Source: a virus | Lineage: Duplodnaviria; Heunggongvirae; Uroviricota; Caudoviricetes | Virus record (IMG/VR): IMGVR_UViG_2923292180_000001 | Reading direction: 5' to 3' (one strand) | Length of the DNA stretch: 24,956 nt | Part shown: positions 1 to 17,868 of the stretch, one piece after another | How positions within the stretch are numbered: the first letter of the stretch is position 1 | Layout of the letters: each line of letters opens with the position of its first letter | Made by a program: the position numbers and the translations under genes | Notes under the pieces: model-generated | The model's database searches: none | What the model saw: the letters and a program-made list of their open reading frames with translations, nothing else | What the model was told of the DNA's origin: nothing

Positions 1-19
1 CTATTTGATAAATATTAAA

Positions 20-1315
20 TTAATTTTTCATTGCTTCGTTATGGGGCATGGTTGGGGCAAACTCGCTTAACTGTGTATTTAACAAAGCTACCTGTGCATT
101 ATTGTTTTCAGACATCCATTTTCCGTATACCTGAAATACCATTTGCGCATCTGCATGGCCCATCTGGTTTGCTATAAATGCCGGGTTAGCACCAGCTGTC
201 AGCGACCAGCAGGCATAAGTATGTCTCGACTGATATGATTTTCGATGGCGGAGTCCGGCACGTTTTATCGCTGCGTCCCACATCTGCCTTATTGAGTCAA
301 CGGTAAAATGGTCACCATAATTTTTTACTCTCGCTGACACTTCAGGTTGAAAAACAAAGGTGCATTTTTGTTTTTCTGTTCTGCCATACTCTCTGAGGTG
401 AACATCAATGATATGCTCTTTGCTCAGTCTCGTTAATGTCATCTGACTCCGGAGAGCGTCGATTGCTGGCTTAATAAGATGAATGACCCGATTGGTTCCC
501 GCCTGTGTTTTTGGTACCGTGAAACGGTCTTTTGCTAAATTTCTCCTGATCATCATTGTTCCATTTTTCAGATCTATGTCCTCCCATCCAAGTGCACACA
601 GCTCACCAGGGCGAACTCCAGTATAAACAGAAACACACCATAAATTTTTTGCTTGCTGATTTCTGCACGCATCGATAAGACGGATAAATTCTTCCCGCGA
701 AAGAGGATCCGGAATGGTTCTTGATTCCTTTAATGGCGAGATCCCCTTAAACGGATTATCTGCCAGGTAACCGTTATCAACACCAAACTGGAACACGGCG
801 TTAAGATTTGTCATGTAATTATTTACAGTTACAGCCGATCTCCCTGGTTGTGTAACAATATAGTTACTTTTGGGGATCTGGTATCCAGTCAGTAACTCTT
901 TACGAACCTCCAGTAATTTTTCTTTATTAATCGATGAGGCAAGATTTTTTTCACCGATTATGCTCAGGATATTTTTGATGACGGCACGGTATGTGTTGAG
1001 TGATGTTTTGGCGACTTCAGTTTCTTTCAGTGCCAGAAATTTTTCAGCCAGTTCTTTTATGGTTAAATCTTGTCGGGCCTCACCAAATTTTTCCAGATTG
1101 CGTGAGGAGGGAAACTGTTTTGCATAGTCGAAAACACCAGTTTTTATTGCGTAACAAACAGAGGAGCGTAGTTCACCTGCAACGCGCCTGTTTTTTGCTG
1201 TGTCAGGAACCCCCAGATTTTCCCTGACTCTTACGTCTTTATAAACAAACCAGATACGTAATTTCCCTCCATGGTTTTCCACGCCTGTCGGATATTTCAT
1301 TTCAACTTCTCTCAT
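20..1315 (-). CDS. Phage-type tyrosine integrase (site-specific recombinase), apparently full length
   Basis: 431-aa ORF at the prophage edge; C-terminal region has the R...H..R...Y pattern of tyrosine recombinases (..SRHTYACW..HADAQMVFQVYGKWM..); an excisionase-like gene lies immediately upstream on the same strand. Confidence 0.85.
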   Translation of the reverse strand: MREVEMKYPTGVENHGGKLRIWFVYKDVRVRENLGVPDTAKNRRVAGELRSSVCYAIKTGVFDYAKQFPSSRNLEKFGEARQDLTIKELAEKFLALKETEVAKTSLNTYRAVIKNILSIIGEKNLASSINKEKLLEVRKELLTGYQIPKSNYIVTQPGRSAVTVNNYMTNLNAVFQFGVDNGYLADNPFKGISPLKESRTIPDPLSREEFIRLIDACRNQQAKNLWCVSVYTGVRPGELCALGWEDIDLKNGTMMIRRNLAKDRFTVPKTQAGTNRVIHLIKPAIDALRSQMTLTRLSKEHIIDVHLREYGRTEKQKCTFVFQPEVSARVKNYGDHFTVDSIRQMWDAAIKRAGLRHRKSYQSRHTYACWSLTAGANPAFIANQMGHADAQMVFQVYGKWMSENNNAQVALLNTQLSEFAPTMPHNEAMKN

Positions 1316-1334
1316 TAGTTAGTGTGGCTTTTAG

Positions 1335-1586
1335 TCAAGTAAGATGACGTCTTGGTCTCGCTGATGCCTGGCGCTCAATCCAGCGATCAATTTCTTCCAG
1401 GTTGTAAAAGCATGGACTGTTATCCCATGGCATACCGTCATGAGCGACATGCTTATATTCCCTTCCTTCCATAAACGATTTTTCCCGGGCCTTTTTTAAC
1501 GTACCTTTTTTTATTCCTTTCAGCGCAATTAACTGCTCTTCGGATACCCATTTGCCGGGAGAGACAATCATGATTACTTCGCTCAT
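1335..1586 (-). CDS. Excisionase-like small DNA-binding protein
   Basis: 83-aa ORF 20 bp upstream of the integrase, same strand; basic; resembles lambdoid-prophage Xis-like proteins from memory (MSEVIMIV..GREYKHV..IDRWI). Confidence 0.6.
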   Translation of the reverse strand: MSEVIMIVSPGKWVSEEQLIALKGIKKGTLKKAREKSFMEGREYKHVAHDGMPWDNSPCFYNLEEIDRWIERQASARPRRHLT

Positions 1587-1658
1587 CGATTTCTTTATCT
1601 CTTACATCAGACGAGCGCCGGTTGCAGAATACCAGTCACAACCGGCGACAGTTGAACA

Positions 1659-3692
1659 TTAAGAATCAGCCTGACTCGGGATCAGTTTTTGCCAGATAAC
1701 TGAAACGTATTTTGCCTGGTAACGGGCGTCATCAAGTGCATTATGGCGCTCACCTTCGAATGGAATAGCCGTTCTGGCATCGAAGTCTATGGCTTTCCCC
1801 AGCTCAACGATTGTGCGTACATCGCGATCGTTGTAGTAACGCCACGGGCAGGGGATCCCCTGCCGTTCGTATGAACGGCGCAAAATCGTGTTGTCGAAGT
1901 TGGCTCCATTTCCCCAAACCTGAACAAAAAATTCACCGGAGTTTTCGTCGATAAATTCTCGCAATTGTAACAGTGCATCATCTAACGGGATTTCATCGGT
2001 CATAATGGCAGATTGCGCTTCGCGTGATTGCTTAAGCCACCATTTAATGGTGTCCCGATCAATGACTCCGCCAGCAGTTTCCAGATCGATAGTCTTACTA
2101 AATTCCGGTCCCATATCTCCGGTTTGCGGATCGAAAAATATTGCACCTATTGAGATGATCGGGGCATCAGGATTTTTTCCCATGGTTTCAAGGTCGATCA
2201 TTAGATGGTCACACGTCCTGCTGGTGGATGTGATTTCGTGATGACCGTTCACCTTAATTGGGTGATCTGCCGTCTCGCCAGTTTCATTATCGCTATTGTG
2301 ATGCTGATTGCCGCCAGTGTTCTCCTTGTGTGGATGTTCAGCGCCTTCCATTTCCTCCGGATCATCTTCCTGAACTTCAACCTGATACTCTTCATCGAAT
2401 GTTTCTTGGTATGTTGCGTCGCCCATCACCGCGCCACAATCAGGGCAGTTGCCGCCGCCGGTCTGACCGCAGGCGGTGCAGACTTTTTCCACTTCCTGTT
2501 GCGCTACTGGTTCAGGCTGTTTCGTTTCTGGCTCGTTTTGTAACGCATTTGGACTGTTTTGTTCCGCTTTTTGGTAGTTCCGTTCCGATTCATGCTGGTT
2601 CTGGTTCACAGAATCGCGGGTCTGGAGCCCCTTAACCCATTTCGGATCATTCGGGTCACTAATCCCTTCAACAAATTCACCACGTGATGCAGCAAGCAAC
2701 TTATCGGCGTCAGGCTGGCTGATATTGGCTGCCTGCATAATTTTGTTTACTTCGTCAGCGGTAACTTTTATCGGCTCTGGTTGTTCTGAATCTTCAGCGG
2801 TATCTACATTTTGCGGTAAGCCCGTGTATGTGCCATTTTTTCGGGCAAAATATTCTTCTTTTGTGATTTCAGTGGCGCCAGCAGCCAGTGCCTTATCCAG
2901 ACCAGAGAGTTTGTTTGCGCGACCGTATTTTTCTCCGTCCTTATCTGCGAAGAGGAAATAGAACGGCCCCTCACGCTCTACAGATGGTTCAGCTTCCGGC
3001 GCGGTTTCATTTTTTGGGATATCAGATACCTCAGTTTCCACTGCATCAGTTTGTGTTTCTGATGACTGGAGAACATCAACAGTGCCCAGGTCTGTTTCTT
3101 CATTCTCAAACACGCCCTTTGTCGTCAGGTATTCGCAGATATATTTGTTCAGTGCTACGGGATCTTTGTGAATGTCGATCGGACGCTCACGGACAAGGCC
3201 AAAAATAGTTTGGCGGTCGTAGCGAAGGGCATCAGGCTGTTTGCGCATTGATGCCGAGATACGCTTCCAGTCTTCGCGGTCGTTGTCGATAACTTCTTTT
3301 TTTGCCCAGCGATGGATGCTGCCGTCAATGTTTCCGGCATCCACATCACTAGGCCAGAGAGCGTAGGCCAGTTCGTCATCCAGTGTTTTCCATGTCTGCT
3401 TGTATTCGCGATGAATGGCAGCAATGACCGGGCTGATTTTTCCTGTTGAATTTTCAGTGTACTGTTGATTGGCTCTGGCGCGGGCGAGATCAACAACAGA
3501 CGTGTATTTTCCGGTTTCCTTGCGTTCACCTTCGCGACGTTTTTTCCAGATGCGCATCTCTGCCTGAATTTCGGGCCATTTAGCACCAGGAATACATTTA
3601 TGCTTAACCCACCCAATGGCGTGCAACTTAAGCTCCGGATACGGGTTATTCCCCTCTGAACAGGCGCGTAAGGACTGGCAAAACGCCCGCAA
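1659..3692 (-). CDS. RecE-like (exodeoxyribonuclease VIII-like) protein with C-terminal DEDDh (DnaQ-like) 3'-5' exonuclease domain
   Basis: 677-aa ORF. C-terminal region carries Exo I (MIDLETMG), Exo II (WGNGANFDNTIL) and Exo III (HNALDDARYQ) motifs; central acidic His-rich low-complexity linker; CxxC-x8-CxxC zinc ribbon (CTACGQTGGGNCPDCG); middle segment (DKLLAASRGEFVEGISDPNDPKWVKG) resembles RecE from memory. Confidence 0.75.
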   Translation of the reverse strand: MRAFCQSLRACSEGNNPYPELKLHAIGWVKHKCIPGAKWPEIQAEMRIWKKRREGERKETGKYTSVVDLARARANQQYTENSTGKISPVIAAIHREYKQTWKTLDDELAYALWPSDVDAGNIDGSIHRWAKKEVIDNDREDWKRISASMRKQPDALRYDRQTIFGLVRERPIDIHKDPVALNKYICEYLTTKGVFENEETDLGTVDVLQSSETQTDAVETEVSDIPKNETAPEAEPSVEREGPFYFLFADKDGEKYGRANKLSGLDKALAAGATEITKEEYFARKNGTYTGLPQNVDTAEDSEQPEPIKVTADEVNKIMQAANISQPDADKLLAASRGEFVEGISDPNDPKWVKGLQTRDSVNQNQHESERNYQKAEQNSPNALQNEPETKQPEPVAQQEVEKVCTACGQTGGGNCPDCGAVMGDATYQETFDEEYQVEVQEDDPEEMEGAEHPHKENTGGNQHHNSDNETGETADHPIKVNGHHEITSTSRTCDHLMIDLETMGKNPDAPIISIGAIFFDPQTGDMGPEFSKTIDLETAGGVIDRDTIKWWLKQSREAQSAIMTDEIPLDDALLQLREFIDENSGEFFVQVWGNGANFDNTILRRSYERQGIPCPWRYYNDRDVRTIVELGKAIDFDARTAIPFEGERHNALDDARYQAKYVSVIWQKLIPSQADS

Positions 3693-3711
3693 AAAACTCT
3701 CGAGGGCAAAG

Positions 3712-3882
3712 GTGAAGAAACCTGCTGTGGTTGATCCGGACCTTATCTGGTCATCACCTGACGGAGAAATACGTCGCTACGACAGTCGCCTAAACATAAT
3801 CTGTCGCGAGTGCCGGAAGAGCGAAGTTATGCAGCGCATACTGGCTTTCTATCAGGGTAATTTTCAGGACGTGGCGCAGTGA
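3712..3882 (+). CDS. Small hypothetical protein (about 56 aa from GTG at 3712), coupled to the downstream methyltransferase remnant
   Basis: Open frame 3616..3882; GTG at 3712 is the first start that does not overlap the divergent exonuclease gene; its stop TGA (3880-3882) overlaps the GTG start of the next ORF (GTGA). Start choice uncertain. Confidence 0.3.
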   Translation: MKKPAVVDPDLIWSSPDGEIRRYDSRLNIICRECRKSEVMQRILAFYQGNFQDVAQ

Positions 3883-4325
3883 GTGCACCGGCAACCATTC
3901 TTGATATGTGCTGTGGCAGCCGCATGTTCTGGTTCGATAAGTCTGACGAACGGGCGATATTCAGCGATATCAGAAAAGAAGGATACACATTACGCAATGG
4001 GAGACGCTTGATTATCAGCCCTGACATTATCGCAGATTTTCGTGCATTATCATTTGCAGACGCATCTTTTTCGATGGTTGTATTAGACCCTCCGCATCTT
4101 GAGAGTGTTGGTGATAACGCCTGGATGGGAAAGAAATATGGACGGCTGAATAAAGATGCCTGGCGTGATGATTCGCGACAGAGATTTAAAGAAGCCTTTC
4201 GGGTGTTGAGGCCGCACGGCGTTCTGATTTTTTAATGGAATGAAACGCAAATACCGGTAAGCCAGATTCTGGCACTGACAGACAGAAAACCTGTTATCTG
4301 TCAACGAACAGGGAAAAAACGATAA
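3879..4325 (+). pseudogene. SAM-dependent DNA methyltransferase remnant (DPPH motif) broken by an in-frame TAA
   Basis: 118-aa ORF with a glycine-rich SAM-binding-like segment (LDMCCGS) and catalytic-type motif VVLDPPHL; in-frame TAA at 4233-4235 is followed by 29 further sense codons (WNETQIPVSQILALTDRKPVICQRTGKKR) ending at 4325. Confidence 0.55.
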
Positions 4326-4497
4326 AACCCACTGGATTATTTTTATGAAAGAGGCATCCAGTGAGTAGATTCGTAAGGCTACAGATACGTATATCTGAAT
4401 AATTAAATTCAGTTCTGTAAATAAAATTTAATCCTTAACCGGATGGATTTCTGCACCCTCAGAACATCAGGAGGCCGCCCGAAAGGGCGGTAGTGAA

Positions 4498-4680
4498 ATG
4501 CGAAAGTTCAAAATTATTATTGAAACGGGAATAGCTGGTGGAGATTTTGAGGATGTATTCGAAGTGGACGATGACGCAACACCTGAGGAAATTCATGACG
4601 GAGCATAAGAAATTTTCTTTAACTACTGCAATTACTCATACCACGAAATAAAAGACGATGAGGAAGAACAAAGTGGCTGA
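4498..4680 (+). pseudogene. Short ORF broken by an in-frame TAA (35 codons, TAA, 23 codons); possible decayed prophage gene
   Basis: ATG 4498; MRKFKIIIETGIAGGDFEDVFEVDDDATPEEIHDGA, TAA at 4606-4608, then EIFFNYCNYSYHEIKDDEEEQSG and TGA at 4678-4680; preceded by AGGAGG plus an 18-nt GAAA-loop hairpin. Confidence 0.3.
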
Positions 4681-4845
4681 TTTTTGTTAAGCTAAATATA
4701 ACATCAGTTTTGAAGAGCGGGATGAACTATTAATGGACTATGGTGAGTTACGCGGTGGAAGTGCTGCTGATGTCGAATCCTAGCGTGATGACTATGAAGC
4801 GGGAAAAACTCCGGTCGAAGCATATTGTGATGAGTGGGGCGATGA

Positions 4846-5133
4846 ATGAGCGAGATTAATTATCAGGAAGGGCATGAAACGGCGGGGCAAGCAAAACCAG
4901 TGGCATGGCGATATCGCTACGTGAAAAAAGGCGTTACGGACTTTCAGGGGAAGTAGTGGTCTGGTGACTGGAAATATGTACCGAAAAAAGAGGATTGTAA
5001 CGACAGGCCGAACTATCAAATTCAGGCCTTATTCACTGCCTCACCAGTCCCAGTTACATCAGAAGAACTGGTTAAAGCTGTGCACTTTTATGAACAACTA
5101 AAACGCGAAAATCCACCAACATCCGGCAACTAG
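4846..5133 (+). pseudogene. Hypothetical prophage ORF (95 codons) broken by a single in-frame amber codon
   Basis: ATG 4846; 36 sense codons (MSEINYQEGHETAGQAKPVAWRYRYVKKGVTDFQGK), TAG at 4954-4956, then 58 sense codons in the same frame (WSGDWKYVPKKEDCNDRPNYQIQALF...ENPPTSGN) to TAG at 5131-5133. Confidence 0.4.
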
Positions 5134-5387
5134 ATTAATGGATTAACTATGTCGGTTAAACGACCAGCCAACTGAAAAAGCGGAAACCTGATTACAGGTT
5201 GCCAGATAAGGCAATGAGCTACCTGGCGCGGAACGGACTGATAAGTATGGGGAATGTTTTACGATGAACCTTTAGACTAAAGAGTTTGTAACGCTATGTA
5301 AGTGATTTTTTCTGGTTTAGATATTTATATGTCCGGCCAAATTGAGGTGTGTTTAAATGTAATTGCACATTGATTGTAGGAGGAATA

Positions 5388-5567
5388 ATGAAAAACGCAT
5401 TGCAGTTTTTGTTTGTTGCGTTCTGGTTGTTCGCATCATGTATGCCCATCATCTTCACAGCAAGGTATATGGAAAAAGTTGATGTTTTGATATTAATATT
5501 TGGATATATAAATGCCCTTTTTTTAGGGGTGTTCATGGCGGTCATGTGCATTGAATACTGGCGGTAA
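5388..5567 (+). CDS. Small hydrophobic protein (59 aa, two predicted transmembrane segments) in an AT-rich islet
   Basis: ATG 5388 preceded by SD-like TAGGAGGA at 5377-5384; product MKNALQFLFVAFWLFASCMPIIFTARYMEKVDVLILIFGYINALFLGVFMAVMCIEYWR; surrounding DNA is markedly AT-rich. Confidence 0.45.
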   Translation: MKNALQFLFVAFWLFASCMPIIFTARYMEKVDVLILIFGYINALFLGVFMAVMCIEYWR

Positions 5568-5840
5568 ATACAGCGAACTCCATTGGTTTAGTTGGATATT
5601 TACTGTGCTGGACAAAAACGGTTTGCGGGGAAATCTTAGTTAAGTAGAATGACTGCGGGTGCTTGAGGCTATCTGCCTCGGGCATGGACACCAACGGCAG
5701 ATAGAGAAAAGCCCCAGTTAACATTACGCGTCCTGCAAGACGCTTAACATTAATCTGAGGCCAATTTCATGCTAGACACATGTAGGTTAGCCTCTTACGT
5801 GCCGAAAGGCACGGAGAAGCAGGCTATTGTTAACACCAAG

Positions 5841-7458
5841 CTGTAATGTCCCCTTTGAACCATTCTAAAATGTCCCCAGACAATTCTCTGGGGGATTTTT
5901 CATGATCAAAGAGACTGTTACGATGAGTCATAAGGAACTCCACCGACTTCAGATTATTCAGGAACAAGCTGCGGCACGCATTGGCATTTCTATTCGGCAG
6001 GTTAAACGTCTGGTGCAACGGTATAGAAATGAAGGGCCTTCTGGTCTGGTTTCCCACCGACGTGGAAAGCGTCCTAATAATTCCTTTTCTACTGAATTCA
6101 GAGCAACAGTAATTTCACTCCTCAAAGGCCGTTACGCTGATTTTGGACCTACGTTTGCGTGCGAAAAATTGCGCGAGATACACGGTTTATCTTTATCCGT
6201 TGAAACTCTCAGAAAGTGGATGATAGAAGAGGGGTTATGGCGTGAACGCCGTCGTAAAATTGCCCGTATATATCAACGCCGCATGCGACGACCATCTTAC
6301 GGTGAACTGATCCAGATTGATGGCTCACCTCATGACTGGTTTGAAAATCGAGGCCCCAGATGTACACTGATCGTTTTCATTGATGATGCCACCAGTGCGT
6401 TGATGGCGTTGCGTTTTGTGCCTGCTGAAACAACCCGGGCTTACATGGAAACCCTCCGGGGTTACCTTAATGATCATGGCGTACCGCTCGCTCTCTACTC
6501 TGATAGACACAGTATATTCAGGGTAAATAACCCAGAGCGGGAAGGTGAGCTGACCCAGTTCACTCGTGCGATAAAGACACTGGGCATCGAGCCAATCCAT
6601 GCCAACAGCCCGCAGGCAAAAGGGCGGGTAGAGCGCGCCAATCAGACACTACAGGACAGGCTGGTCAAAGAAATGCGGCTTCAGAATATCAGTGATATTG
6701 AAACAGCAAATGCATGGTTGCCGACCTTTATTGAAGCCTATAACAACCGGTTCGCTACGTCGCCTCGTACTACTGATAATGCTCATCTTGATGTGCACCA
6801 TTCTGAAGAGGAACTGGGTTATATCTTCAGCCTACAGGCGAAGCGCGTTCTGTCTAAAAATCTCACTTTCCAGTACAAAAGCAGTGCGTTTCAGGTACGC
6901 AGTGAGGGCCGGGGATATCGACTTAGGCATTCGGTTGTTACTGTATGCGAGAACTTTGACGGTGAAATTAACGTTCTGTATGACGGGAAAGCGCTGGGCT
7001 GGGAAAAGTATGTTGATGGCCCGGAGCCTATACCACTGGATGATGAAAAGAGTGTCCATGAACGAGTGGATAATGCCCGTATTGATTTACGCTCAAAATA
7101 CTATGTTAAACCTAAAGCTGACCATCCCTGGCTTACGCGCCGAACGCAAAGTCATCAGCAAGTTAAGCCCCCGAAGTTACCTAAAAAGAAGCCTGATCCC
7201 GATAAAAAAGATTGAAACCAAGATCGATTCGGTTGAGTGCATATCCATTCATAGGGTAGATTCTTAAGTCGCGTTTCTGGTGTTCATTTTCGGGTGGTTT
7301 GTTACTTGTTTTACCGGGGATATGCCAGAAACGCGCTGAGTCAGTCTGGGCGGTGCGCGTAATGAGGCGTTATGGTAAATAGCCTATGCTAATGTCCGCT
7401 AAGAGCAAGAAGCGGAAGTTGGCAGTTTTGTGGACTGTCCCCACAAAAGTGACTACAG
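5841..7458 (+). mobile_element. Insertion sequence carrying the ISNCY-like transposase; boundaries approximate
   Basis: Single transposase ORF flanked by non-coding arms with short palindromes (CCCCAGA..TCTGGGG near 5875-5893; TTTGTGG..CCACAAA near 7427-7449). No convincing terminal inverted repeats or target duplication could be defined by eye. Confidence 0.3.
5902..7215 (+). CDS. DDE (rve-type) transposase, ISNCY/IS1202-like
   Basis: 437-aa ORF with N-terminal helix-turn-helix (ISIRQVKRLVQRY) and integrase-core signature (..DGSPHDWF.., ..YSDRHSIF.., ..SPQAKGRVERANQTLQD..). Family assignment is from memory. Confidence 0.75.
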   Translation: MIKETVTMSHKELHRLQIIQEQAAARIGISIRQVKRLVQRYRNEGPSGLVSHRRGKRPNNSFSTEFRATVISLLKGRYADFGPTFACEKLREIHGLSLSVETLRKWMIEEGLWRERRRKIARIYQRRMRRPSYGELIQIDGSPHDWFENRGPRCTLIVFIDDATSALMALRFVPAETTRAYMETLRGYLNDHGVPLALYSDRHSIFRVNNPEREGELTQFTRAIKTLGIEPIHANSPQAKGRVERANQTLQDRLVKEMRLQNISDIETANAWLPTFIEAYNNRFATSPRTTDNAHLDVHHSEEELGYIFSLQAKRVLSKNLTFQYKSSAFQVRSEGRGYRLRHSVVTVCENFDGEINVLYDGKALGWEKYVDGPEPIPLDDEKSVHERVDNARIDLRSKYYVKPKADHPWLTRRTQSHQQVKPPKLPKKKPDPDKKD

Positions 7459-7610
7459 AAATAGTTGCAATTCATAATTGATCATGGGTTGTCAGTTAAA
7501 CTCGTGGCGATTTAAATAGACTAATTGGGAGTGCGTCCATTACTTATATCTTGTAATGTTAACTATCAGAAATGATACAAAGATAATATGTCTTTAAAGA
7601 AAAGGCTGAT

Positions 7611-7637
7611 GGCGAAAAGTGGCCCGATGAGGGCCAC
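7611..7637 (-). terminator. Rho-independent terminator downstream of flxA
   Basis: Perfect 7-bp stem GTGGCCC/GGGCCAC (7619-7625, 7631-7637) with 5-nt loop, followed on the minus-strand transcript by UUUUCGCC; 15 bp beyond the flxA stop. Confidence 0.55.
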
Positions 7638-7651
7638 AATACGGCTGTCAC

Positions 7652-7984
7652 TTAGACGTAAATATCAATGGTGCCAGCGGTATTTGTATCGTCTTTTTTC
7701 TCTTCTTTTTTATCAGGCTGAACTGTCGCGTCTTCATTCTTTTTCTCTGCCTGCTGCCTTAACAACTGCTCCAGTTGAGCCCAGAGGCTTTCAATTTGCT
7801 TCTGTACCAATGCAGCCATTTCTTTTTTCTGCTGTGTCGTCATCCCCTCTTCCGATGAGATTTTCCCAAGCTTTTCAGTCAGCACCTGAATTTGTCTTGT
7901 GATTTTGGCTATTTCTGATGTTCCTTCCGGGGCGGAGTTGTTTGAAATAACGGTTGAGGTATTTCCCTGAATTGTGACAGACAT
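7652..7984 (-). CDS. flxA: FlxA (sigma-28-dependent prophage protein)
   Basis: 110-aa product MSVTIQGNTSTVISNNSAPEG...TIDIYV recognised as FlxA; a canonical sigma-28 promoter lies immediately upstream. Confidence 0.9.
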   Translation of the reverse strand: MSVTIQGNTSTVISNNSAPEGTSEIAKITRQIQVLTEKLGKISSEEGMTTQQKKEMAALVQKQIESLWAQLEQLLRQQAEKKNEDATVQPDKKEEKKDDTNTAGTIDIYV

Positions 7985-8006
7985 AGATTTCTCCTTTTAA
8001 AAAAGC

Positions 8007-8033
8007 ACTATCGGCATGCACAAAAAAATCTTT
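8007..8033 (-). promoter_or_regulatory. Sigma-28 (FliA) promoter of flxA
   Basis: Minus-strand sequence TAAAGATT-N11-GCCGATAG (-35 at 8026-8033, -10 at 8007-8014) matches the FliA consensus TAAAGTTT-N11-GCCGATAA with correct spacing; sits 23-49 bp upstream of the flxA ATG. Confidence 0.75.
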
Positions 8034-8186
8034 AATCGTATTTCTTGTGTCATTAATTGTTTGATGTTCAGATTGTTTTCCTCGCGGGCTGGCGCGCCTC
8101 AGAAAGTAAAGCTTGTTGACAGGGGTAAACGTTCGGCAATAATTTTCTGCCGCATGCGGGTGTTGCATAAAACGTGTTACGTTCCT

Positions 8187-8492
8187 TTATCGACAGGTCA
8201 GGTCACCGCTCACCCGCCGACGAGAAAGCAACACTGACATGCTAAAGCAAAAAATAGATGAATAAGTTGAGTTGTGCATATGTAGCCTGACCGTCACAAA
8301 GTATATGGTGTCTGTACCAGTAAGATGATGGCCGGACTCTTTAAAAACGAGCTGACCTGCACAATACAGGATGGACTTAGCAATGGCTGCTCCTGGCACA
8401 AAGCGGACAGTGATCACCGTTCTTACGACTACTTTCTGACTTCCTTCGTGACTTGCCCTAAGCATGTTGTAGTGCGATACTTGTAATGACAT
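8187..8492 (-). CDS. ydfV: Hypothetical prophage protein YdfV-like (101 aa)
   Basis: ORF of the length and position expected between flxA and relB in Qin; its start codon overlaps the relB operator, so the true start and expression are uncertain. Confidence 0.45.
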   Translation of the reverse strand: MSLQVSHYNMLRASHEGSQKVVVRTVITVRFVPGAAIAKSILYCAGQLVFKESGHHLTGTDTIYFVTVRLHMHNSTYSSIFCFSMSVLLSRRRVSGDLTCR

Positions 8493-8504
8493 TTGTAATT
8501 ACAA
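8481..8504 (+). promoter_or_regulatory. relBE operator (relO-like inverted hexad repeats)
   Basis: TTGTAATgacaTTTGTAATTACAA immediately upstream of the relB SD and ATG (8517); the TTGTAAT/ATTACAA repeats are those of the RelB-RelE operator. Confidence 0.6.
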
Positions 8505-8516
8505 GAGGTGTAAGAC

Positions 8517-8756
8517 ATGGGTAGCATTAACCTGCGTATTGACGATGAACTTAAAGCGCGTTCTTACGCCGCGCTTGAAAAAATGGGTGTAACTCCTTCT
8601 GAAGCGCTTCGTCTCATGCTCGAGTATATCGCTGACAATGAACGCTTGCCGTTCAAACAGACACTCCTGAGTGATGAAGATGCTGAACTTGTGGAGATAG
8701 TGAAAGAACGGCTTCGTAATCCTAAGCCAGTACGTGTGACGCTGGATGAACTCTGA
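8517..8756 (+). CDS. relB: RelB antitoxin
   Basis: 79-aa product MGSINLRIDDELKARSYAALEKMGVTPSEALRLMLEYIADNERLPF... recognised as RelB; stop overlaps relE start (TGATG). Confidence 0.95.
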   Translation: MGSINLRIDDELKARSYAALEKMGVTPSEALRLMLEYIADNERLPFKQTLLSDEDAELVEIVKERLRNPKPVRVTLDEL

Positions 8757-9043
8757 TGGCGTATTTTCTGGATTTTGACGAGCGGGCACTAAAGGAATGG
8801 CGAAAGCTGGGCTCGACGGTACGTGAACAGTTGAAAAAGAAGCTGGTTGAAGTACTTGAGTCACCCCGGATTGAAGCAAACAAGCTCCGTGGTATGCCTG
8901 ATTGTTACAAGATTAAGCTCCGGTCTTCAGGCTATCGCCTTGTATACCAGGTTATAGACGAGAAAGTTGTCGTTTTCGTGATTTCTGTTGGGAAAAGAGA
9001 ACGCTCGGAAGTATATAGCGAGGCGGTCAAACGCATTCTCTGA
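8756..9043 (+). CDS. relE: RelE mRNA interferase toxin
   Basis: 95-aa product MAYFLDFDERALKEWRKLGSTVREQLKKKLVEVLESPRIEANKLRG... recognised as RelE; translationally coupled to relB. Confidence 0.95.
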   Translation: MAYFLDFDERALKEWRKLGSTVREQLKKKLVEVLESPRIEANKLRGMPDCYKIKLRSSGYRLVYQVIDEKVVVFVISVGKRERSEVYSEAVKRIL

Positions 9044-9114
9044 ACCAAAGCATGACATCTCTGTTTCGCACCGAAGGTGACACTTCTGCTTTGCGTTGAC
9101 AGGAGAAGCAGGCT

Positions 9115-9270
9115 ATGAAGCAGCAAAAGGCGATGTTAATCGCCCTGATCGTCATCTGTTTAACCGTCATAGTGACGGCACTGGTAACGAGGAAAGACCT
9201 CTGCGAGGTACGAATCCGAACCGGCCAGACGGAGGTCGCTGTCTTCACAGCTTACGAACCTGAGGAGTAA
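9115..9270 (+). CDS. hokD: Hok-family membrane toxin HokD (RelF); below the ORF-track size cutoff
   Basis: 51-aa ORF MKQQKAMLIALIVICLTVIVTALVTRKDLCEVRIRTGQTEVAVFTAYEPEE: single transmembrane segment plus conserved Hok C-terminus; immediately downstream of relE. Confidence 0.85.
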   Translation: MKQQKAMLIALIVICLTVIVTALVTRKDLCEVRIRTGQTEVAVFTAYEPEE

Positions 9271-9339
9271 GAGACCCGGCGGGGGAGAAATCCCTCGCCA
9301 CCTCTGATGTGGCAGGCATCCTCAACGCACCCGCACTTA

Positions 9340-9370
9340 ACCCGCTTCGGCGGGTTTTTGTTTTTATTTT
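9340..9370 (+). terminator. Rho-independent terminator of the relB-relE-hokD operon
   Basis: AACCCGC-TTCG-GCGGGTT hairpin followed by TTTTGTTTTTATTTT, about 70 bp after the hokD stop. Confidence 0.7.
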
Positions 9371-9486
9371 CAACGCGTTTGAAGTTCTGGACGGTGCCGG
9401 AATAGAATCAAAAATACTTAAGTAGCGCGCAGGGATAAGAGGGATGGTCCCTTAAAGGGGAGAGCTAATTATCCGGAAGGATTCTG

Positions 9487-9738
9487 ATGATGAACATCGA
9501 AGAACTGCGTAAAATTTTTTGTGAAGATGGCCTCTATGCTGTGTGCGTTGAAAATGGAAATCTTGTTAGTCATTACCGCATTATGTGTTTGCGAAAGAAT
9601 GGGGCTGCGTTAATTAATTTTGTGGATGCTCGGGTCACGGACGGATTTATCTTGCGCGAAGGTGAGTTTGTCACTTCATTACAGGCATTGAAAGAGATCG
9701 GAATAAAAGCTGGCTTTTCTGCTTTTTCAGGAGAATAA
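9487..9738 (+). CDS. rem: Rem (prophage protein, 83 aa)
   Basis: Product MMNIEELRKIFCEDGLYAVCVENGNLVSHYRIMCLRKNGAALINFVD... matches Rem from memory in length and position between hokD and ydfU. Confidence 0.75.
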   Translation: MMNIEELRKIFCEDGLYAVCVENGNLVSHYRIMCLRKNGAALINFVDARVTDGFILREGEFVTSLQALKEIGIKAGFSAFSGE

Positions 9739-9804
9739 ACTCATCTACAATCTTGCGCGGGGCTGAACTCCCGCTGAGTAACACCGTGCCACCGGAGAAA
9801 ACCG

Positions 9805-10083
9805 ATGGCACGCAACGCAAAATATTACAATTCTGATAATTCGCCCGTTCTTGCCTGCACGCACGGGCGGTATTCTCACGCATTCAAGTCTGAATGGTTC
9901 CAGCACCCTCCATGCACTGCAGAACAGGCCGAATGGCTGATTCATTCTTACCGCAGGCGCGGGTTCGAGGTTAAGAAAGCTCTCAGTCTCGACTATCGGC
10001 ACTGGATAATCTCTGTCAGGCTGCCTTATTCCGAACGCCCACCACGTGCGTCCCGCACTTTCCAGCAACGGATCTGGAGGTAA
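9805..10083 (+). CDS. Hypothetical 92-aa protein between rem and ydfU
   Basis: ATG 9805 with upstream GGAGAAAA; its TAA stop (10081-10083) lies inside the SD (GGAGGT) of ydfU, 1 nt before the ydfU GTG start. No recognisable domain. Confidence 0.4.
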   Translation: MARNAKYYNSDNSPVLACTHGRYSHAFKSEWFQHPPCTAEQAEWLIHSYRRRGFEVKKALSLDYRHWIISVRLPYSERPPRASRTFQQRIWR

Positions 10084-10084
10084 C

Positions 10085-11134
10085 GTGCGGGTATTACTTA
10101 GACCTGTTCTGGTGCCTGAGCTTGGGCTGGTGGTCCTTAAGCCGGGCCGTGAATCCATACAGATATTTCATAATCCTCGAGTGCTGGTGGAACCGGAACC
10201 AAAAAGCATGCGTAATCTGCCATCCGGAGTCGTTCCTGCCGTTCGCCAGCCGCTGGCGGAAGACAAAACATTGCTGCCGTTTTTTAGTAACGAACGGGTG
10301 ATTCGTGCTGCTGGCGGCGTTGGCGCATTGTCCGACTGGCTATTACGTCATGTTACATCCTGCCAGTGGCCTAATGGCGATTACCATCACACTGAAACAG
10401 TCATTCACCGTTATGGTACCGGCGCAATGGTGTTGTGCTGGCACTGCGACAACCAACTGCGTGACCAGACATCGGAATCACTGGAGCTGCTTGCTCAACA
10501 AAATCTGACAGCATGGGTGATTGACGTCATCCGTCACGCAATAAGCGGTACGCAGGAGCGGGAATTATCTTTGGCTGAATTATCCTGGTGGGCGGTCTGC
10601 AATCAGGTGGTGGATGCACTACCTGAGGCTGTATCGCGTCGTTCGCTGGGATTACCAGCGGAAAAAATCTGCTCGGTGTACCGCGAAAGCGACATCGTAC
10701 CGGGAGAGCAGACCGCCACCAGCATATTGAAACAACGCACAAAAAATCTTGCACCGTTGCCTTACGCCCACCAGCAACAAAAATCACCACAGGAAAAGAC
10801 GGTGGTAAGCATCACCGTTGATCCAGAGTCTCCGGAATCTTTCATGAAGCTGCCTAAACGTCGCCGCTGGGTTAAGGAGAAATACACACGTTGGGTTAAG
10901 ACACAGCCGTGTGCTTGCTGCGGTATGCCAGCCGACGATCCGCATCATCTGATTGGTCACGGGCAGGGCGGAATGGGAACAAAAGCACATGATCTCTTTG
11001 TGTTGCCTTTGTGCAGAAAGCATCACAACGAGCTGCATACGGATACAGTGGCATTTGAAGATAAGTATGGCTCCCAACTGGAGCTGATATTTCGTTTTAT
11101 CGATCGCGCGCTGGCAATTGGCGTACTGGCGTAA
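10085..11134 (+). CDS. ydfU: YdfU (DUF968-family protein with C-terminal Cys/His cluster)
   Basis: GTG 10085 preceded by GGAGGT gives 349 aa (the ORF-track frame extends to GTG 10046); C-terminus has CACCGMPADDPHHLIGHGQGGMGTKAHDLFVLPLCRKHHNELH. Confidence 0.8.
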   Translation: MRVLLRPVLVPELGLVVLKPGRESIQIFHNPRVLVEPEPKSMRNLPSGVVPAVRQPLAEDKTLLPFFSNERVIRAAGGVGALSDWLLRHVTSCQWPNGDYHHTETVIHRYGTGAMVLCWHCDNQLRDQTSESLELLAQQNLTAWVIDVIRHAISGTQERELSLAELSWWAVCNQVVDALPEAVSRRSLGLPAEKICSVYRESDIVPGEQTATSILKQRTKNLAPLPYAHQQQKSPQEKTVVSITVDPESPESFMKLPKRRRWVKEKYTRWVKTQPCACCGMPADDPHHLIGHGQGGMGTKAHDLFVLPLCRKHHNELHTDTVAFEDKYGSQLELIFRFIDRALAIGVLA

Positions 11135-11147
11135 GTGGAGAACGAGC

Positions 11148-11900
11148 ATGAACCTTGAAGCCTTACCAAAATATTACTCCCCAAAATCTCCAAAATTGAG
11201 CGATGACGCTCCAGCGACAGGCACCGGTTGTTTAACAATTACGGATGTAATGGCAGCGCAGGGGATGGTGCAGTCGAAAGCACCACTTGGGTTGGCCTTA
11301 TTTCTGGCAAAAGTTGGTGTTCAGGACCCTCAGTTTGCGATTGAAGGCCTGCTAAATTACGCGATGGCACTGGATAACCCGACATTGAACAAATTGAGTG
11401 AAGAAATCCGGTTACAGATTATTCCTTACCTCGTGAGTTTTGCCTTTGCTGATTACTCCAGGTCTGCGGCAAGTAAGGCTCGCTGTGAGCATTGTTCAGG
11501 TACGGGATTTTATAATGTATTGCGCGAAGTGGTGAAACACTACAGACGCGGGGAATCTGTAATCAAGGAAGAATGGGTGAAGGAACTATGTCAGCATTGC
11601 CATGGTAAGGGCGAAGCCAGCACAGCGTGCAGAGGGTGTAAGGGTAAAGGGATTGTTCTGGATGAAAAAAGAACCCGGTTTCATGGCGTACCGGTATATA
11701 AGATTTGTGGGCGTTGTAATGGAAACCGGTTTAGTCGTTTACCGACCACGCTGGCACGACGTCATGTCCAGAAGCTGGTACCAGACCTGACCGATTATCA
11801 GTGGTATAAGGGGTATGCGGACGTCATTGGTAAACTGGTAACAAAGTGCTGGCAGGAAGAAGCATACGCGGAAGCGCAATTGAGGAAGGTGACGAGATAA
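11148..11900 (+). CDS. quuQ: Late-gene antitermination protein Q
   Basis: 250 aa from ATG 11148 (ORF frame opens at 11118); Cys/His-rich zinc-finger region (CEHCSGTG..CQHCHGKG..CRGCKGKG..CGRCNG); lies upstream of a PR'-like promoter and terminator. Confidence 0.85.
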   Translation: MNLEALPKYYSPKSPKLSDDAPATGTGCLTITDVMAAQGMVQSKAPLGLALFLAKVGVQDPQFAIEGLLNYAMALDNPTLNKLSEEIRLQIIPYLVSFAFADYSRSAASKARCEHCSGTGFYNVLREVVKHYRRGESVIKEEWVKELCQHCHGKGEASTACRGCKGKGIVLDEKRTRFHGVPVYKICGRCNGNRFSRLPTTLARRHVQKLVPDLTDYQWYKGYADVIGKLVTKCWQEEAYAEAQLRKVTR

Positions 11901-11930
11901 ATGATTTTTGCTGAAGATGGCGACATGATG

Positions 11931-11960
11931 TTTGCATTTTTCAAAAAATATGGATAAAAT
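11931..11960 (+). promoter_or_regulatory. Late promoter PR'-like element with downstream pause/qut-like CAACGATGGG
   Basis: TTTGCA (-35, 11931-11936), 18-bp spacer, TAAAAT (-10, 11955-11960), followed by TTTTCAACGATGGG, which closely parallels the lambda PR' initial transcribed region (...TGACTCAACGATGGG). Confidence 0.55.
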
Positions 11961-12005
11961 TTTTTCAACGATGGGCTTTGTATACCCGACGTTAAGAAAA
12001 AGTAG

Positions 12006-12034
12006 AAAACCCGCTGATGAGCGGGTTTTGTGCT
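12006..12034 (+). terminator. tR'-like rho-independent terminator downstream of the late promoter
   Basis: AAAACCCGCT-gatg-AGCGGGTTTTGTGC: 6-bp GC-rich stem with a T-run, about 50 nt downstream of the putative PR' start. Confidence 0.65.
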
Positions 12035-12321
12035 TTAAATGGGGCAATGGTAATGTTGAATCTCATCCCGGGACTCATGTCTGTTAACTTATTATTTAGC
12101 TGGTGACTTGGTTATTTGCCTGATGTTTAAAATGTTTTCTTCCAGTACAATGTCCCTAAACACAATGAGTCTGCTTATTATATTATTAGCAGAGCTATTA
12201 CGGCCAAAGTACAGCATAAGCTTTTAAAGCCAATCAACCAGTCATCAAGACAGACGGGGTTATTCATAAAAACTCTCCATGTGTGATCCGATGGGGCCTG
12301 AAATTAAAGCTTTAATATAGC

Positions 12322-12534
12322 TCATGAAAGGTAAACATTGGCAGCTGAAGGGCCACGCAGACCATTTATCCGGCAAAATTCCACGCGTAATCCGGTGGTA
12401 ATTTCTTCTGCATCGCGGAGATTGAGCGCTGAAACATGAAGCTGGACATCGATACGACCATCGGATGGGGTGATAAGACCCTTGCCGCTTTTGCCGTCAA
12501 AGGTTTTGACAATTCCTGTCATTTTACGGGACAA
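12322..12534 (-). CDS. cspF: Cold-shock-like protein CspF
   Basis: 70-aa product [70 protein letters not shown]; divergent from cspB. Confidence 0.9.
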
Positions 12535-12684
12535 AAAAATTCCTTAATACTGATAACTTGGCGCACTATACACACGTTCCTGAAGAAAGCTATAGTTTTT
12601 TGATGGGGTTGAAGATGGCTGGATGTCTAAAATAAACATTGCTTCATATGTTCAACTATGCGTTAATGATTGCGTCGGTTTGAA

Positions 12685-12834
12685 GAACAGACGATATACG
12701 AAGTAGTTTACTAAAGCAGTTCTCATTTCAGGTGTTATTCACTTATTCCTTCTTTGAGTCTCTCCAATTAAGTACGAAGTCGTTTCTGTTATGCAAACCA
12801 TTTATGCCGAAAGGCTCAAGTTAAGGAATGTAGA
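12685..12834 (+). promoter_or_regulatory. cspB 5' untranslated leader with cold-box-like element and cspA-type upstream box
   Basis: AACAGACGATATACGAAGTAGTTTACTAAAGCAG resembles the cspA cold box (TGACGTACAGACCATTAAAGCAG); GCCGAAAGGC lies just upstream of the SD (AAGGAATG) before the cspB ATG, as in cspA. Recalled from memory, not aligned. Confidence 0.4.
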
Positions 12835-13050
12835 ATGTCAAATAAAATGACTGGTTTAGTAAAATGGTTTAACGCTGATAAAGGTTTCGGCTTTATTTCT
12901 CCTGTTGATGGTAGTAAAGATGTGTTTGTGCATTTTTCTGCGATTCAGAATGATAATTATCGAACCTTATTTGAAGGTCAAAAGGTTACCTTCTCTATAG
13001 AGAGTGGTGCTAAAGGTCCTGCAGCAGCAAATGTCATCATTACTGATTAA
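12835..13050 (+). CDS. cspB: Cold-shock protein CspB
   Basis: 71-aa product [71 protein letters not shown] with RNP1/RNP2 motifs. Confidence 0.95.
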
Positions 13051-13331
13051 AATTCATCGCTCGTCTGTATACGATAACGAAGAAGGCTGATGCCTGAGTA
13101 GAGATACGGACAGAGTAGTGAATATTGGATCTCTTTAATAAAAAGTAAGGAGGTCCAATACATGAAACAATGGCTAGCATATTTGGCAAAATCTTAATCA
13201 GGAAAAGTATGCTAACCATTGTGGTGAAGTGCAGGTTTGCTGCATGAATAGTTTTACAGCAGAAGCTAACTGCTGGCATGGCAAAACAAAGTGCGTAAGT
13301 GGATGACTCCCACAAAAAGCACCACAATCTC

Positions 13332-13357
13332 AAACCCGCTCAGGCGGGTTTTTTATT
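13332..13357 (+). terminator. Hairpin terminator between cspB region and the convergent small zinc-ribbon gene
   Basis: AAACCCGC-TCAG-GCGGGTTTTTTATT; strong on the plus strand, weaker but possible for the minus-strand gene ending at 13414. Confidence 0.5.
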
Positions 13358-13413
13358 ATCTGCTTTAAATATATTATTAAAATATAAAAAATACTTGTTA
13401 CTAATAAAATCAA

Positions 13414-13584
13414 TCAGGCTACAGCTTTAAGATTTGTCTGGAATACTTTGTTGCAATGAGGGCAGATCAAAAGGGCACCTTTTTGTACTCTTGAAAAACT
13501 GTGTTCTGACTCTTGGGTGCAGTTTGGGCAGGAACATTTAACGAGATAATTACGGCGTGATTTTGAGTTTTTACGTTCTGACAT
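13414..13584 (-). CDS. Small zinc-ribbon protein (56 aa, two CxxC pairs); possibly YnfU-like
   Basis: ATG at 13584 with upstream AGGAAAAG; product MSERKNSKSRRNYLVKCSCPNCTQESEHSFSRVQKGALLICPHCNKVFQTNLKAVA (CPNC...CPHC). Gene name is a guess from memory. Confidence 0.5.
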   Translation of the reverse strand: MSERKNSKSRRNYLVKCSCPNCTQESEHSFSRVQKGALLICPHCNKVFQTNLKAVA

Positions 13585-13803
13585 AGGCTTTTCCTGTATA
13601 AATGGCCGTATACAGTACACTAAATATGAAAACATTTCTCGTATTATTATTTTATATATGACTTTCTTTCAAAATAATTACCCACATTTTTAATGTGTAT
13701 GTTTTTTTAGCGCCGTTGAGAACAACGTGTGCTGTCAAAACTCCCCCGTAGACTCCGATCTTTTCAAACATATTGCACCATCCGTGTACATCGGGGTGAG
13801 GAT

Positions 13804-14019
13804 ATGAAATCAATGGATAAGTTAACAACAGGTGTTGCCTATGGCACATCGGCGGGTAATGCTGGTTTCTGGGCATTGCAGTTACTCGATAAAGTAACTC
13901 CGTCACAGTGGGCTGCAATCGGTGTGCTGGGTAGCCTGGTTTTTGGCCTGCTGACGTATCTGACAAATCTTTATTTCAAGATTAAAGAAGACAGGCGTAA
14001 GGCTGCGAGAGGAGAGTAA
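13804..14019 (+). CDS. essQ: Class II holin (phage 21 S21 pinholin type) with dual-start motif
   Basis: 71 aa from ATG 13804 ([10 protein letters not shown]..., second Met at codon 4 as in holin/antiholin dual starts); two transmembrane segments and charged C-terminus ([13 protein letters not shown]). Confidence 0.85.
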
Positions 14020-14023
14020 TCCA

Positions 14024-14331
14024 ATGACTCAAGACTATGAACTGGTTGTGAAAGGAGTCCGTAATTTTGAGAATAAAGTTACGGTAACTGTAGCCTTACA
14101 GGACAAAGAACGCTTTGACGGTGAAATTTTTGACCTGGATGTCGCCATGGACCGTGTTGAAGGAGCTGCGCTGGAGTTTTATGAGGCAGCAGCCAGAAGG
14201 AGCGTCCGGCAAGTCTTCCTGGAAGTAGCAGAAAAATTGTCAGAAAAAGTTGAGTCTTATCTGCAGCATCAGTACTCCTTTAAGATTGAAAATCCTGCCA
14301 ATAAGCACGAGCGTCCTCATCATAAATATCT

Positions 14332-14335
<4 letters not shown>
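14024..14335 (+). CDS. ydfR: YdfR (DUF1327 prophage protein, 103 aa)
   Basis: Sits between holin and endolysin; stop overlaps the endolysin start (ATGA). Confidence 0.75.
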
Positions 14336-15359
<1,024 letters not shown>

Positions 15360-15721
15360 GGTAATATTAAATCGGAACATTTACATCGCGGAATGTAAAA
15401 TTTAAATAAAAAGGACTCTTCCATGAGCCAAAATTCCTGAAATCTTAAGGGTAAGATAAAAGGTCTTAATCAGAATGACACGTTTTATTAATAAATAAAG
15501 CCATTCTTTCATTGCTGTGTTTTTCTTTACAAAAGTAATCCTTGCTATGGGTGGTTAATCATGCGTTAATGGTGTTCTGGTTTGTTACAAATTTATCTGA
15601 AGCAGTCATTGTTATAATTTTATTATTTGTACCTCTTGAGATTTCCTTGTTGGTTTTTCTCTCTGATATTTTTTTTCGGACCATTCTGCCCAAGGGCTAA
15701 TTTCTTCAAAAGGTAATAATT

Positions 15722-15934
15722 ATGTCTAACAAAATGACTGGTTTAGTGAAATGGTTTAACCCTGAAAAAGGTTTTGGTTTCATCACGCCGAAAGATGGCA
15801 GCAAAGATGTGTTTGTCCATTTCTCAGCAATTCAGAGCAACGATTTCAAAACATTAACTGAGAATCAGGAAGTTGAATTTGGTATTGAGAACGGACCTAA
15901 AGGTCCTGCCGCTGTTCATGTAGTGGCGCTTTGA
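15722..15934 (+). CDS. cspI: Cold-shock protein CspI
   Basis: 70-aa product [70 protein letters not shown]; long AT-rich leader upstream. Confidence 0.95.
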
Positions 15935-16138
15935 GGTAGACAATATTACAAACCATATTCACTTTAGATGCCCGTGTTGTCATGGTTCCCAGTATAGAAC
16001 ATCATCTTTTGATGTTTCTGACATGAATCCTTTCGGGGCAAAATGTATCTTTTGTAAATCAATGATGATTACATTTGATAATATTTCACAATACTTAAAT
16101 GCCAGCCGTCTGTCGTTGGATTTAAAAAAGTGAAAATG

Positions 16139-16162
16139 AAGGCTCCTTCGGGAGCTTTTTTG
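16139..16162 (+). terminator. Rho-independent terminator downstream of the cspI region
   Basis: AAGGCTCC-TTCG-GGAGCTTTTTTGC; placed 6 bp after the stop (16131-16133) of a zinc-ribbon reading frame. Confidence 0.55.
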
Positions 16163-16205
16163 CTTGGTGTCTATTCGATGGATACTCACATACTACGGTA
16201 ACATC

Positions 16206-16436
16206 ATGAAAAAAATCATAGTTTTTTTTAACTCTGAACCAGCAGTGGTAGTGCCAGCGATGACTGGAGTTAACACCATCATGCGTGAATATCCAAATGG
16301 CGAAAAAACACACCTTACTGTAATGGCCGCAGGGTTTCCATCTCTGACCGGAGATCATAAAGTCATTTATGTAGCCGCGGATCGACATGTTACTTCAGAA
16401 GAAATTCTGGAAGCAGCAATAAGGCTCTTGAGTTGA
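16206..16436 (+). CDS. Hypothetical 76-aa protein
   Basis: ATG 16206 (ORF-track frame opens at 16164); product MKKIIVFFNSEPAVVVPAMTGVNTIMREYPNGEKTHLTVMAAGFPSLTGDHKVIYVAADRHVTSEEILEAAIRLLS; no recognisable domain. Confidence 0.4.
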   Translation: MKKIIVFFNSEPAVVVPAMTGVNTIMREYPNGEKTHLTVMAAGFPSLTGDHKVIYVAADRHVTSEEILEAAIRLLS

Positions 16437-16579
16437 TTTGATGCTATTGCATTGATAATTCAGGAAAATTCTCTTTGTCTGTTTGTGTAAAATTTAGACT
16501 ATCGTATGTTGATTATTGCGATGTTTCATCTTATCTTTTACACGTTTGCTGATCCTACCCACGTAATATGGACACAGGC

Positions 16580-17446: not shown

Positions 17447-17751
17447 TTCAGGCGCTTCGCGAAGTATGTCGCGGCCTTTTGGAGGATAGCCAGCTCTTCA
17501 TCCCGTTCTGCCAGCTGGCGTTTGAGACGTGCAATCTCGGTAGACATCTCCAGTTCACGTTCAGAAGACGTCTGCTGATTTTGCTGTTTACTGCGCCAGT
17601 TGTAGAGTTGTGATTCATACAGGCTGAGTTCACGGGCTGCGGCAGTAACACCGATGCGTTCAGCAAGCTTCAGGGCTTCACTGCGAAATTCAGGCGAATG
17701 CTGTTTACGGGGTTTTTTACTGGTTGATACTGTTTTTGTCATGTGAGTCAC
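17443..17751 (-). CDS. insE: IS3 transposase OrfA (InsE), helix-turn-helix / leucine zipper
   Basis: 102-aa [58 protein letters not shown]... recognised as IS3 InsE. Confidence 0.9.
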
Positions 17752-17868
17752 CTCTGACTGAGAGTTTACTCACTTAGCCGCGTGTCCACTATTGCTGGGT
17801 AAGATCATGCACCATATAATCGACTTACTGTGTAACTGGAAAGTCATAACAGACTAAAAGAGGAAATG

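Follow-up and report, generated by a model that had tools for sequence, protein, structure and literature searches.

Positions 3,712 to 5,133 of the window (the whole stretch of viral DNA that we analysed, 24,956 nucleotides, IMG/VR record IMGVR_UViG_2923292180_000001) contain plus-strand reading frames that continue in frame beyond a stop codon, and the question is how these genes came to be interrupted. The original prediction, made from the letters alone, was that three consecutive reading frames had each been broken by one nonsense codon with no frameshifts, reflecting recent inactivation of a small plus-strand module (a small protein, a DNA methyltransferase and two hypothetical proteins) opposite an int-xis-exonuclease operon. 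The positions of the stops and their internal nature are borne out here, as are inactivation by nonsense and the methyltransferase label. The simple pattern is not: the region holds frameshifts, a fourth gene and further stops, and the recency, the intact frames, the separate module and the small protein all have to be given up. The frames are very probably decayed accessory genes of a Qin-type prophage, in which lesions accumulated stepwise under relaxed selection.

Over its full length the window is 100% identical to E. coli chromosomes in RefSeq records of the Qin locus (rspB - int ... ydfJ'), starting just past rspB and ending at a truncated ydfJ. It is a Qin-type lambdoid cryptic prophage located between rspB and ydfJ in non-K-12 E. 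coli. The gene order annotated by PGAP begins with int, xis, a 5'-truncated 3'-5' exonuclease gene (exo), a 5'-truncated DUF977 gene, the methyltransferase gene (MT), a DUF7167 gene and a hypothetical gene; continues with an ISNCY remnant, ydfW, flxA, ydfV, relBE, hokD, rem, ydfU and the antitermination protein Q gene (ydfT); and ends with csp genes, lysis genes, a Nu1'/'J fusion, tfaQ, pinQ, ydfK and ydfJ'. Qin is a grounded lambdoid prophage, strongly variable in size and content among strains, and the mutational 'grounding' of prophages has been described (PMC6379469).

The Qin prophage of K-12 occupies the same chromosomal site (rspB-ydfJ) and shares with the window ydfW, flxA, ydfV, relBE, hokD, rem, ydfU, ydfT (Q) and cspF/B, as well as the essD-rrrQ-rzpQ lysis genes, cspI, gnsB, ydfO, tfaQ, pinQ, ydfK and the truncated ydfJ. 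The left arms differ: in the window, int-xis-exo' is fused to 'lygF, MT and three small pseudogenes, with the immunity region (dicA/dicC/dicB) deleted. K-12-sized genomes match the query only at its exonuclease end, over approximately 40 nt.

Escherichia phage PhiR42_1 (PV340562, 48.7 kb, host ECOR13) is near-identical to the window. In a k-mer map, positions 1-3642 of the window correspond to 1046-4687 of PhiR42_1, and positions 3640-16549 to 9305-22214; the two are collinear except for deletions (exo/lygF and Nu1/J) and one IS. By this map, the window derives by deletion from a full-length prophage such as PhiR42_1. The two have in common the TAA and +1 G of MT, the TAA of the DUF7167 gene, the TAG of a 58-aa gene, and the TAG and deletion of the last gene. 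In contrast to the window, PhiR42_1 keeps the immunity region, O, an intact lygF, a complete exo and the full head and tail module, has TCA at 4688, and is without the IS3-size insertion at 16550-17807 of the window. A literature search for PhiR42 and LygF yielded nothing relevant.

Positions 3631-5267 are the accessory (nin-like) region that follows O and lygF in the rightward early operon, and contain the following features:

3631-3882, plus strand: 3' fragment of lygF/DUF977 with the N-terminal part deleted (Pfam DUF977, E=6e-15, profile positions 62-134 of 134)
3633-3642, no strand: junction of a 4,617-bp deletion, fusing exo' (minus strand) to 'lygF (plus strand) (k-mer map against PhiR42_1)
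3879-4368, plus strand: MT pseudogene, a 162-aa class I SAM-dependent methyltransferase of phrog_954 (homologue alignment; phrog E=1e-78)
4233-4235, plus strand: MT nonsense codon, AAA>TAA at the invariant Lys119 (39 homologues aligned)
4311-4313, plus strand: MT insertion of 1 nt, GG>GGG, which leaves the 3' end frameshifted (DNA alignment)
4498-4680, plus strand: DUF7167 (PF23768) pseudogene of 60 codons, AAA>TAA at 4606-4608 (Lys37) (Pfam E=3e-13)
4673-4849, plus strand: pseudogene of a 58-aa protein, phrog_519, between DUF7167 and the last gene (alignment of relatives and phrog match)
4846-5267, plus strand: last gene, pseudogene of a 171-aa protein, phrog_660 (alignment to the intact gene of strain 95-3322)

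The three stop codons are located as predicted: TAA 4233-4235 in MT is followed by 29 sense codons and TAA 4323-4325, TAA 4606-4608 in the DUF7167 gene by 23 sense codons and TGA 4678-4680, and TAG 4954-4956 in the last gene by 58 sense codons and TAG 5131-5133. At these sites the intact homologues have AAA (Lys119), AAA (Lys37) and CCG (Pro37), and homology continues past each; the stops are truly internal rather than natural ends, and the genes are dead by nonsense. Intact full-length homologues align over the lesions, and the prophage that carries these lesions is defective and occupies a known attachment locus. Relaxed constraint is visible in multiple lesions and in the loss of conserved residues, both beyond what the first lesion had done.

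The MT family comprises 6,689 homologues with a full length of approximately 157-162 aa and the source name 'class I SAM-dependent methyltransferase', and intact members are common in E. coli (clusters of 256, 1,099 and 271 member sequences). The 'DNA methyltransferase' profile phrog_954 matches residues 5-157 (E=1.1e-78), making the earlier label of methyltransferase remnant a reasonable one. Pfam Methyltransf_11 reaches 20.3 bits, under its cut-off of 21.2, and no NCBIfam model scores above its cut-off. Two motifs, D-x-CCGS and D70-P-P72-H73, are conserved in a 39-member alignment of the family and kept in the window (D70, P72 and H73 are invariant; P71 occurs in at least 90%); they are similar to motifs I and IV as known from amino-methyltransferases. 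The best hit of a PDB sequence search had an E value of 0.95, and an AlphaFold2 model of the intact homologue P0001 (39 sequences) had a pLDDT of 59, too poor for a fold search. A role in anti-restriction or orphan modification, with DNA as the putative substrate, would be a guess.

The MT stop falls within F118-K119-W120, where Lys is invariant in the 39 intact members. The claim that the frame is otherwise intact fails with the extra G at 4311-4313: when one base is dropped there, the MT frame gives GKNDKTHWIIFMKEASSE*, which is the C-terminus of the intact proteins P0001 and P0002, so the stop at 4323 is a product of out-of-frame reading. In addition, six of the 63 family-invariant residues are replaced in the window (C39R, D40N, P58S, F69L, R76S and G102R), compared with none in the recently killed O157:H7 copy, which has a nonsense codon of its own (W95*). 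R76S is younger than the MT stop, since relatives with the same TAA and +1 G keep R76. A stop-loss in this gene (TAG>GAG) was considered and rejected: GAG is the normal codon in the 162-aa P0001 and P0002, and the O157 copy stops earlier.

Independent MT nonsense codons are found in three lineages: K119* (window), W95* (O157:H7) and R100* (L002, a relative of the window). This recurrence counts against neutral decay in that it could hint at selection for loss. PGAP flags MT as a pseudogene in some records and often calls an intact 118-aa protein, WP_001310834.1; this protein, called intact in many sampled E. coli genomes, is a truncated, frameshifted remnant. That PGAP still names the stump a protein is a second observation counting against neutral decay.

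The DUF7167 gene scores 50 bits against a cut-off of 24.4, above the gathering score, and intact 60-aa forms are present in strains AST20, noe1104 and 95-3322. PGAP flags the gene with 'internal stop', and both it and the 171-aa gene are already marked as pseudogenes in RefSeq records of identical sequence. It is not directly followed by the last gene, as three consecutive frames would have it: a fourth gene, 4673-4849, lies between the two and is itself damaged three times, with its start changed from ATG to GTG and with two stops (TCA>TAA at 4688-4690 and TGG>TAG at 4781-4783). This 58-aa gene is without annotation in three PGAP records (L001, L004 and L009). Neither it nor the 171-aa gene has an above-threshold match to a Pfam or NCBIfam family.

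The last gene likewise departs from the expectation of one stop per gene. Its supposed natural end, TAG 5131-5133, is a premature stop where the intact 171-aa form has CAG (CAG>TAG), in addition to the CCG>TAG change at Pro37. There is also a 90-nt in-frame deletion at 5109/5110, flanked by AATCC(G/A)CCA repeats, and a loss of 4 nt at 5164/5165 puts the rest of the gene out of frame, with more stops before the original TGA (5265-5267) is reached. The PGAP call is 'frameshifted; internal stop', at a length of 422 nt (516-90-4). With noe1104 (L007) as the reference, an 89-nt frameshifting deletion would be read instead of the 90-nt one; this was ruled out, as L007 is itself 1 nt short relative to 95-3322 (L012). 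In noe1104, the 129-aa last gene called 'intact' is the product of a frameshift in the 171-aa gene.

The nin-like regions of 95-3322, noe1104 and AST20 (from the replication genes to hok/Q) have the same gene order as the window: DUF977, variable genes, DUF7167, the 58-aa gene, the 171-aa gene and hok. The copies in 95-3322 are intact (60, 58 and 171 aa), whereas no copy in the window is intact, and the ISNCY element cuts off hok.

The opposed orientation of these genes and the int-xis-exo genes had been taken as the mark of a separate plus-strand module. It is instead the result of the 4,617-bp deletion, which repositioned part of the early operon: the plus-strand block stands head-to-head with the leftward exo because the immunity region between both early operons was deleted. 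Lost in the deletion are the 5' end of exo, ydfD, cI/dicA, cro/dicC, cII, O and the 5' part of lygF, and the junction at 3633-3642 is a 10-bp microhomology (CTCCGG.TAC). The small protein at the head of the supposed module is by Pfam a 3' fragment of DUF977/lygF, labelled by PGAP as 'DUF977 family protein, incomplete, missing N-terminus'. In lambdoid phages the divergent early promoters sit in the immunity region; both PL and PR are thus presumably gone, and the dead genes have probably been transcriptionally silent since the deletion. A scan of 3300-5950 for promoter-like sites found four, against 4.5±1.7 in shuffled sequences, and is no enrichment. The Rfam scan gave no match within 3712-5133; the sole match nearby is the downstream sok RNA at 5657-5828.

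Over the four genes, the lesions amount to six nonsense codons, two indels that shift the frame and a single in-frame deletion, plus the truncated lygF. We estimated the frequency of four of the stops as the occurrence of exact 61-mers, centred on the lesion, in 5,426 complete E. coli genomes. TAG 4954 is found in 879 genomes, MT TAA 4233 in 472 and DUF7167 TAA 4606 in 382, with one to three mismatches in a further 221 genomes for the last of these; in one relative with a single mismatch (L013) the TAA is kept and the difference is elsewhere in the 61-mer. TAA 4688 is exact in only eight genomes, with 483 more having one to three mismatches, and the codon is TCA in all four near-identical relatives that were read (L001, L002, L003 and L013). 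E. coli W likewise combines the MT TAA allele with TCA at 4688. A 65-mer across the deletion junction is present at a coverage of at least 80% in 90 of the 5,426 genomes.

The number of stops is close to what undirected mutation would produce. Of 1,098 coding nucleotides that align with the closest intact references, 120 are different in the window; by codon, the changes are synonymous in 44 cases, missense in 53 and nonsense in 6. In these Lys-, Glu- and Trp-rich genes, nonsense makes up 3.4-6.1% of all possible substitutions. When 120 random substitutions were scattered over the intact references, all differences being counted as unconstrained, 4.5-5.0 stops were expected; the observed six (P=0.30-0.38 for at least six) are thus no excess over chance. 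Part of the divergence arose under purifying selection, as a third-position bias indicates; fewer of the differences are then truly neutral, and stops could still be in modest excess. The changes that made the six stops are mixed (A>T twice, C>A, G>A, C>T and one double change), and point to no single mutagenic process or hypermutation signature.

These observations make the following course very probable, in which we infer the process to be neutral. The four accessory genes (the 162-aa MT, DUF7167, 58-aa and 171-aa genes) gained stops and indels stepwise under relaxed selection, the 90-nt in-frame loss in the last gene being probably a slippage deletion. Five of the six stops preceded the large deletion, having been there already in a full-length prophage of approximately 49 kb. 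A later, microhomology-mediated deletion of 4.6 kb then removed the immunity region and the genes flanking the divergent early promoters, setting the dead genes head-to-head with the truncated exo, and the final stop, TAA 4688, arose in a small clade.

The same stops might have been favoured, in that an orphan MT or the neighbouring small proteins could be costly or toxic to the lysogen. This would be host-driven domestication by gene silencing, with MT and the adjacent small early-operon genes repeatedly lost. Such adaptive silencing could account for K119*, W95* and R100* as three independent hits on one MT gene, and for the presence of the three counted stop alleles in 7-16% of the complete genomes. 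The stop count equals the neutral expectation, however, and intact MT homologues abound in E. coli; together these make selection unneeded as an explanation. The frameshifts, deletions and IS insertions of the same region fit undirected decay, and hitch-hiking with the prophage can explain the allele frequencies. We consider adaptive silencing improbable.

Stepwise decay also has to be weighed against the course first proposed, a recent and clean knockout with one nonsense codon per gene, the frames otherwise intact and each gene easily revertible. The three stops are indeed real single-codon interruptions, and a public MT allele, P0005, reads GAA where the MT stop stands. That allele nevertheless keeps the +1 frameshift, and the other damage described above is no more compatible with a clean event: the last gene has its 90-nt deletion, second stop and 4-nt frameshift, the fourth gene has two stops, and MT has lost six invariant residues. 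Nor are the stops recent as a group. All but TAA 4688 are present in PhiR42_1 and in sampled relatives at least 99% identical to the window, the three counted alleles are spread over 382-879 genomes, and TAG 4954 and the 90-nt deletion also occur in a more divergent prophage lineage, of only 92% identity. Only TAA 4688 is recent. Sister lineages have been damaged in other ways, by R100* with a 1-nt deletion (L002), by an ISEc52 insertion (L004) and by an IS66 insertion (L011). The ages of inactivation are heterogeneous, and the decay is long-running and ongoing; a recent clean knockout is very unlikely.

Programmed readthrough or recoding, in which a suppressor tRNA or the sequence context decodes the stops and the genes stay functional, has nothing in its favour beyond the in-frame continuation after the stops. 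A search with ARAGORN gave no tRNA in the 24,956 nt of the window, the stops comprise TAA as well as TAG codons, and the intact homologues have ordinary sense codons (Lys, Lys and Pro) at the stop sites; frameshifts and further stops follow downstream, and invariant MT residues are lost. We regard it as hardly credible. A sequencing or assembly artefact can be dismissed, as hundreds of complete genomes, each sequenced independently, and one phage record have the same alleles.

Decay by stepwise loss is ordinary, already known prophage biology, and the locus matters little beyond annotation hygiene. The small additions made here are the 58-aa pseudogene, the recognition of WP_001310834.1 as a stump and of the 129-aa noe1104 allele as frameshifted, and an order of the lesions by frequency. 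The nested frequencies (879, 472, 382, 90 and 8 genomes) provide a relative timeline from a full-length Qin-type prophage to a cryptic remnant, and the nested lesions could act as lineage markers.

The methyltransferase gene has been inactivated independently outside the window, in a prophage of O157:H7 and in a lineage that is sister to the window allele. The two copies and their nonsense changes are as follows:

L006 1503-1976: methyltransferase copy in E. coli O157:H7 strain 2159, TGG>TAG (W95*)
L002 1792-2236: methyltransferase copy in the sister lineage of the window allele, an additional CGA>TGA (R100*)

In an alignment with P0005, a public methyltransferase protein allele from an ENA contig (99% identical), GAA (Glu) occupies the position of the TAA at 4233-4235 in the window. 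The downstream +1 frameshift is retained in this allele, which has the C-terminus ...GKKR. The GAA codon is either a pseudo-reversion or the intermediate in an AAA>GAA>TAA series.

A GC-rich hairpin (GCCGCCC-GAAA-GGGCGG) is present at 4473-4491, overlapping GGAGG, the ribosome-binding site for DUF7167. Divergent relatives keep this hairpin; in the related E. coli record L005, one arm carries a single change that is not compensated. The operon could use the hairpin as a translational or processing element. At the last accessory gene, the 129-aa hypothetical protein annotated as intact in strain noe1104 (L007 3514-3903) is a frameshifted form of the 171-aa protein found in strain 95-3322; the shift comes from the loss of 1 nt in GGTAAAGCC.

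Several further features lie to the right of this region in the window:

5657-5828 (+): sok antitoxin RNA (Rfam; 104 bits, E=6e-23)
from 5902: ISNCY transposase ORF
12674-13066 and 15576-15961: two 5' UTRs of the cspA thermoregulator type, which are the leaders of cspB and cspI (Rfam)
~19520-19567 and 20705-20938: more deletion junctions relative to PhiR42_1, a full-length Qin-type prophage
21417-21615: IS009 RNA (Rfam)

Both cspA-type 5' UTRs and the IS009 RNA are expected Qin residents. The sok match is accompanied by a short mok-like ORF (5769-5846), after which there is no hok ORF. Because relatives have hokD immediately 3' of the 171-aa gene, this hok/sok copy appears to have been severed by the ISNCY element. 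Another hokD, which is intact, is found farther right in the window, adjoining relBE.

A 1,258-bp insertion at 16550-17807 (flanks overlapping by 3 bp) is not found in PhiR42_1 and contains minus-strand ORFs of 102 aa and 288 aa; its size and layout are those of IS3. In L009, an otherwise identical genome, IS3 is located elsewhere, between ydfW and flxA. The different site indicates that IS3 is moving within this prophage.

One of the fusions seen against PhiR42_1 joins the terminase small-subunit gene to the mid-part of the tail-tip gene J, with the loss of head and tail genes amounting to about 16 kb. In a second fusion, the tail-fibre gene is joined to J.
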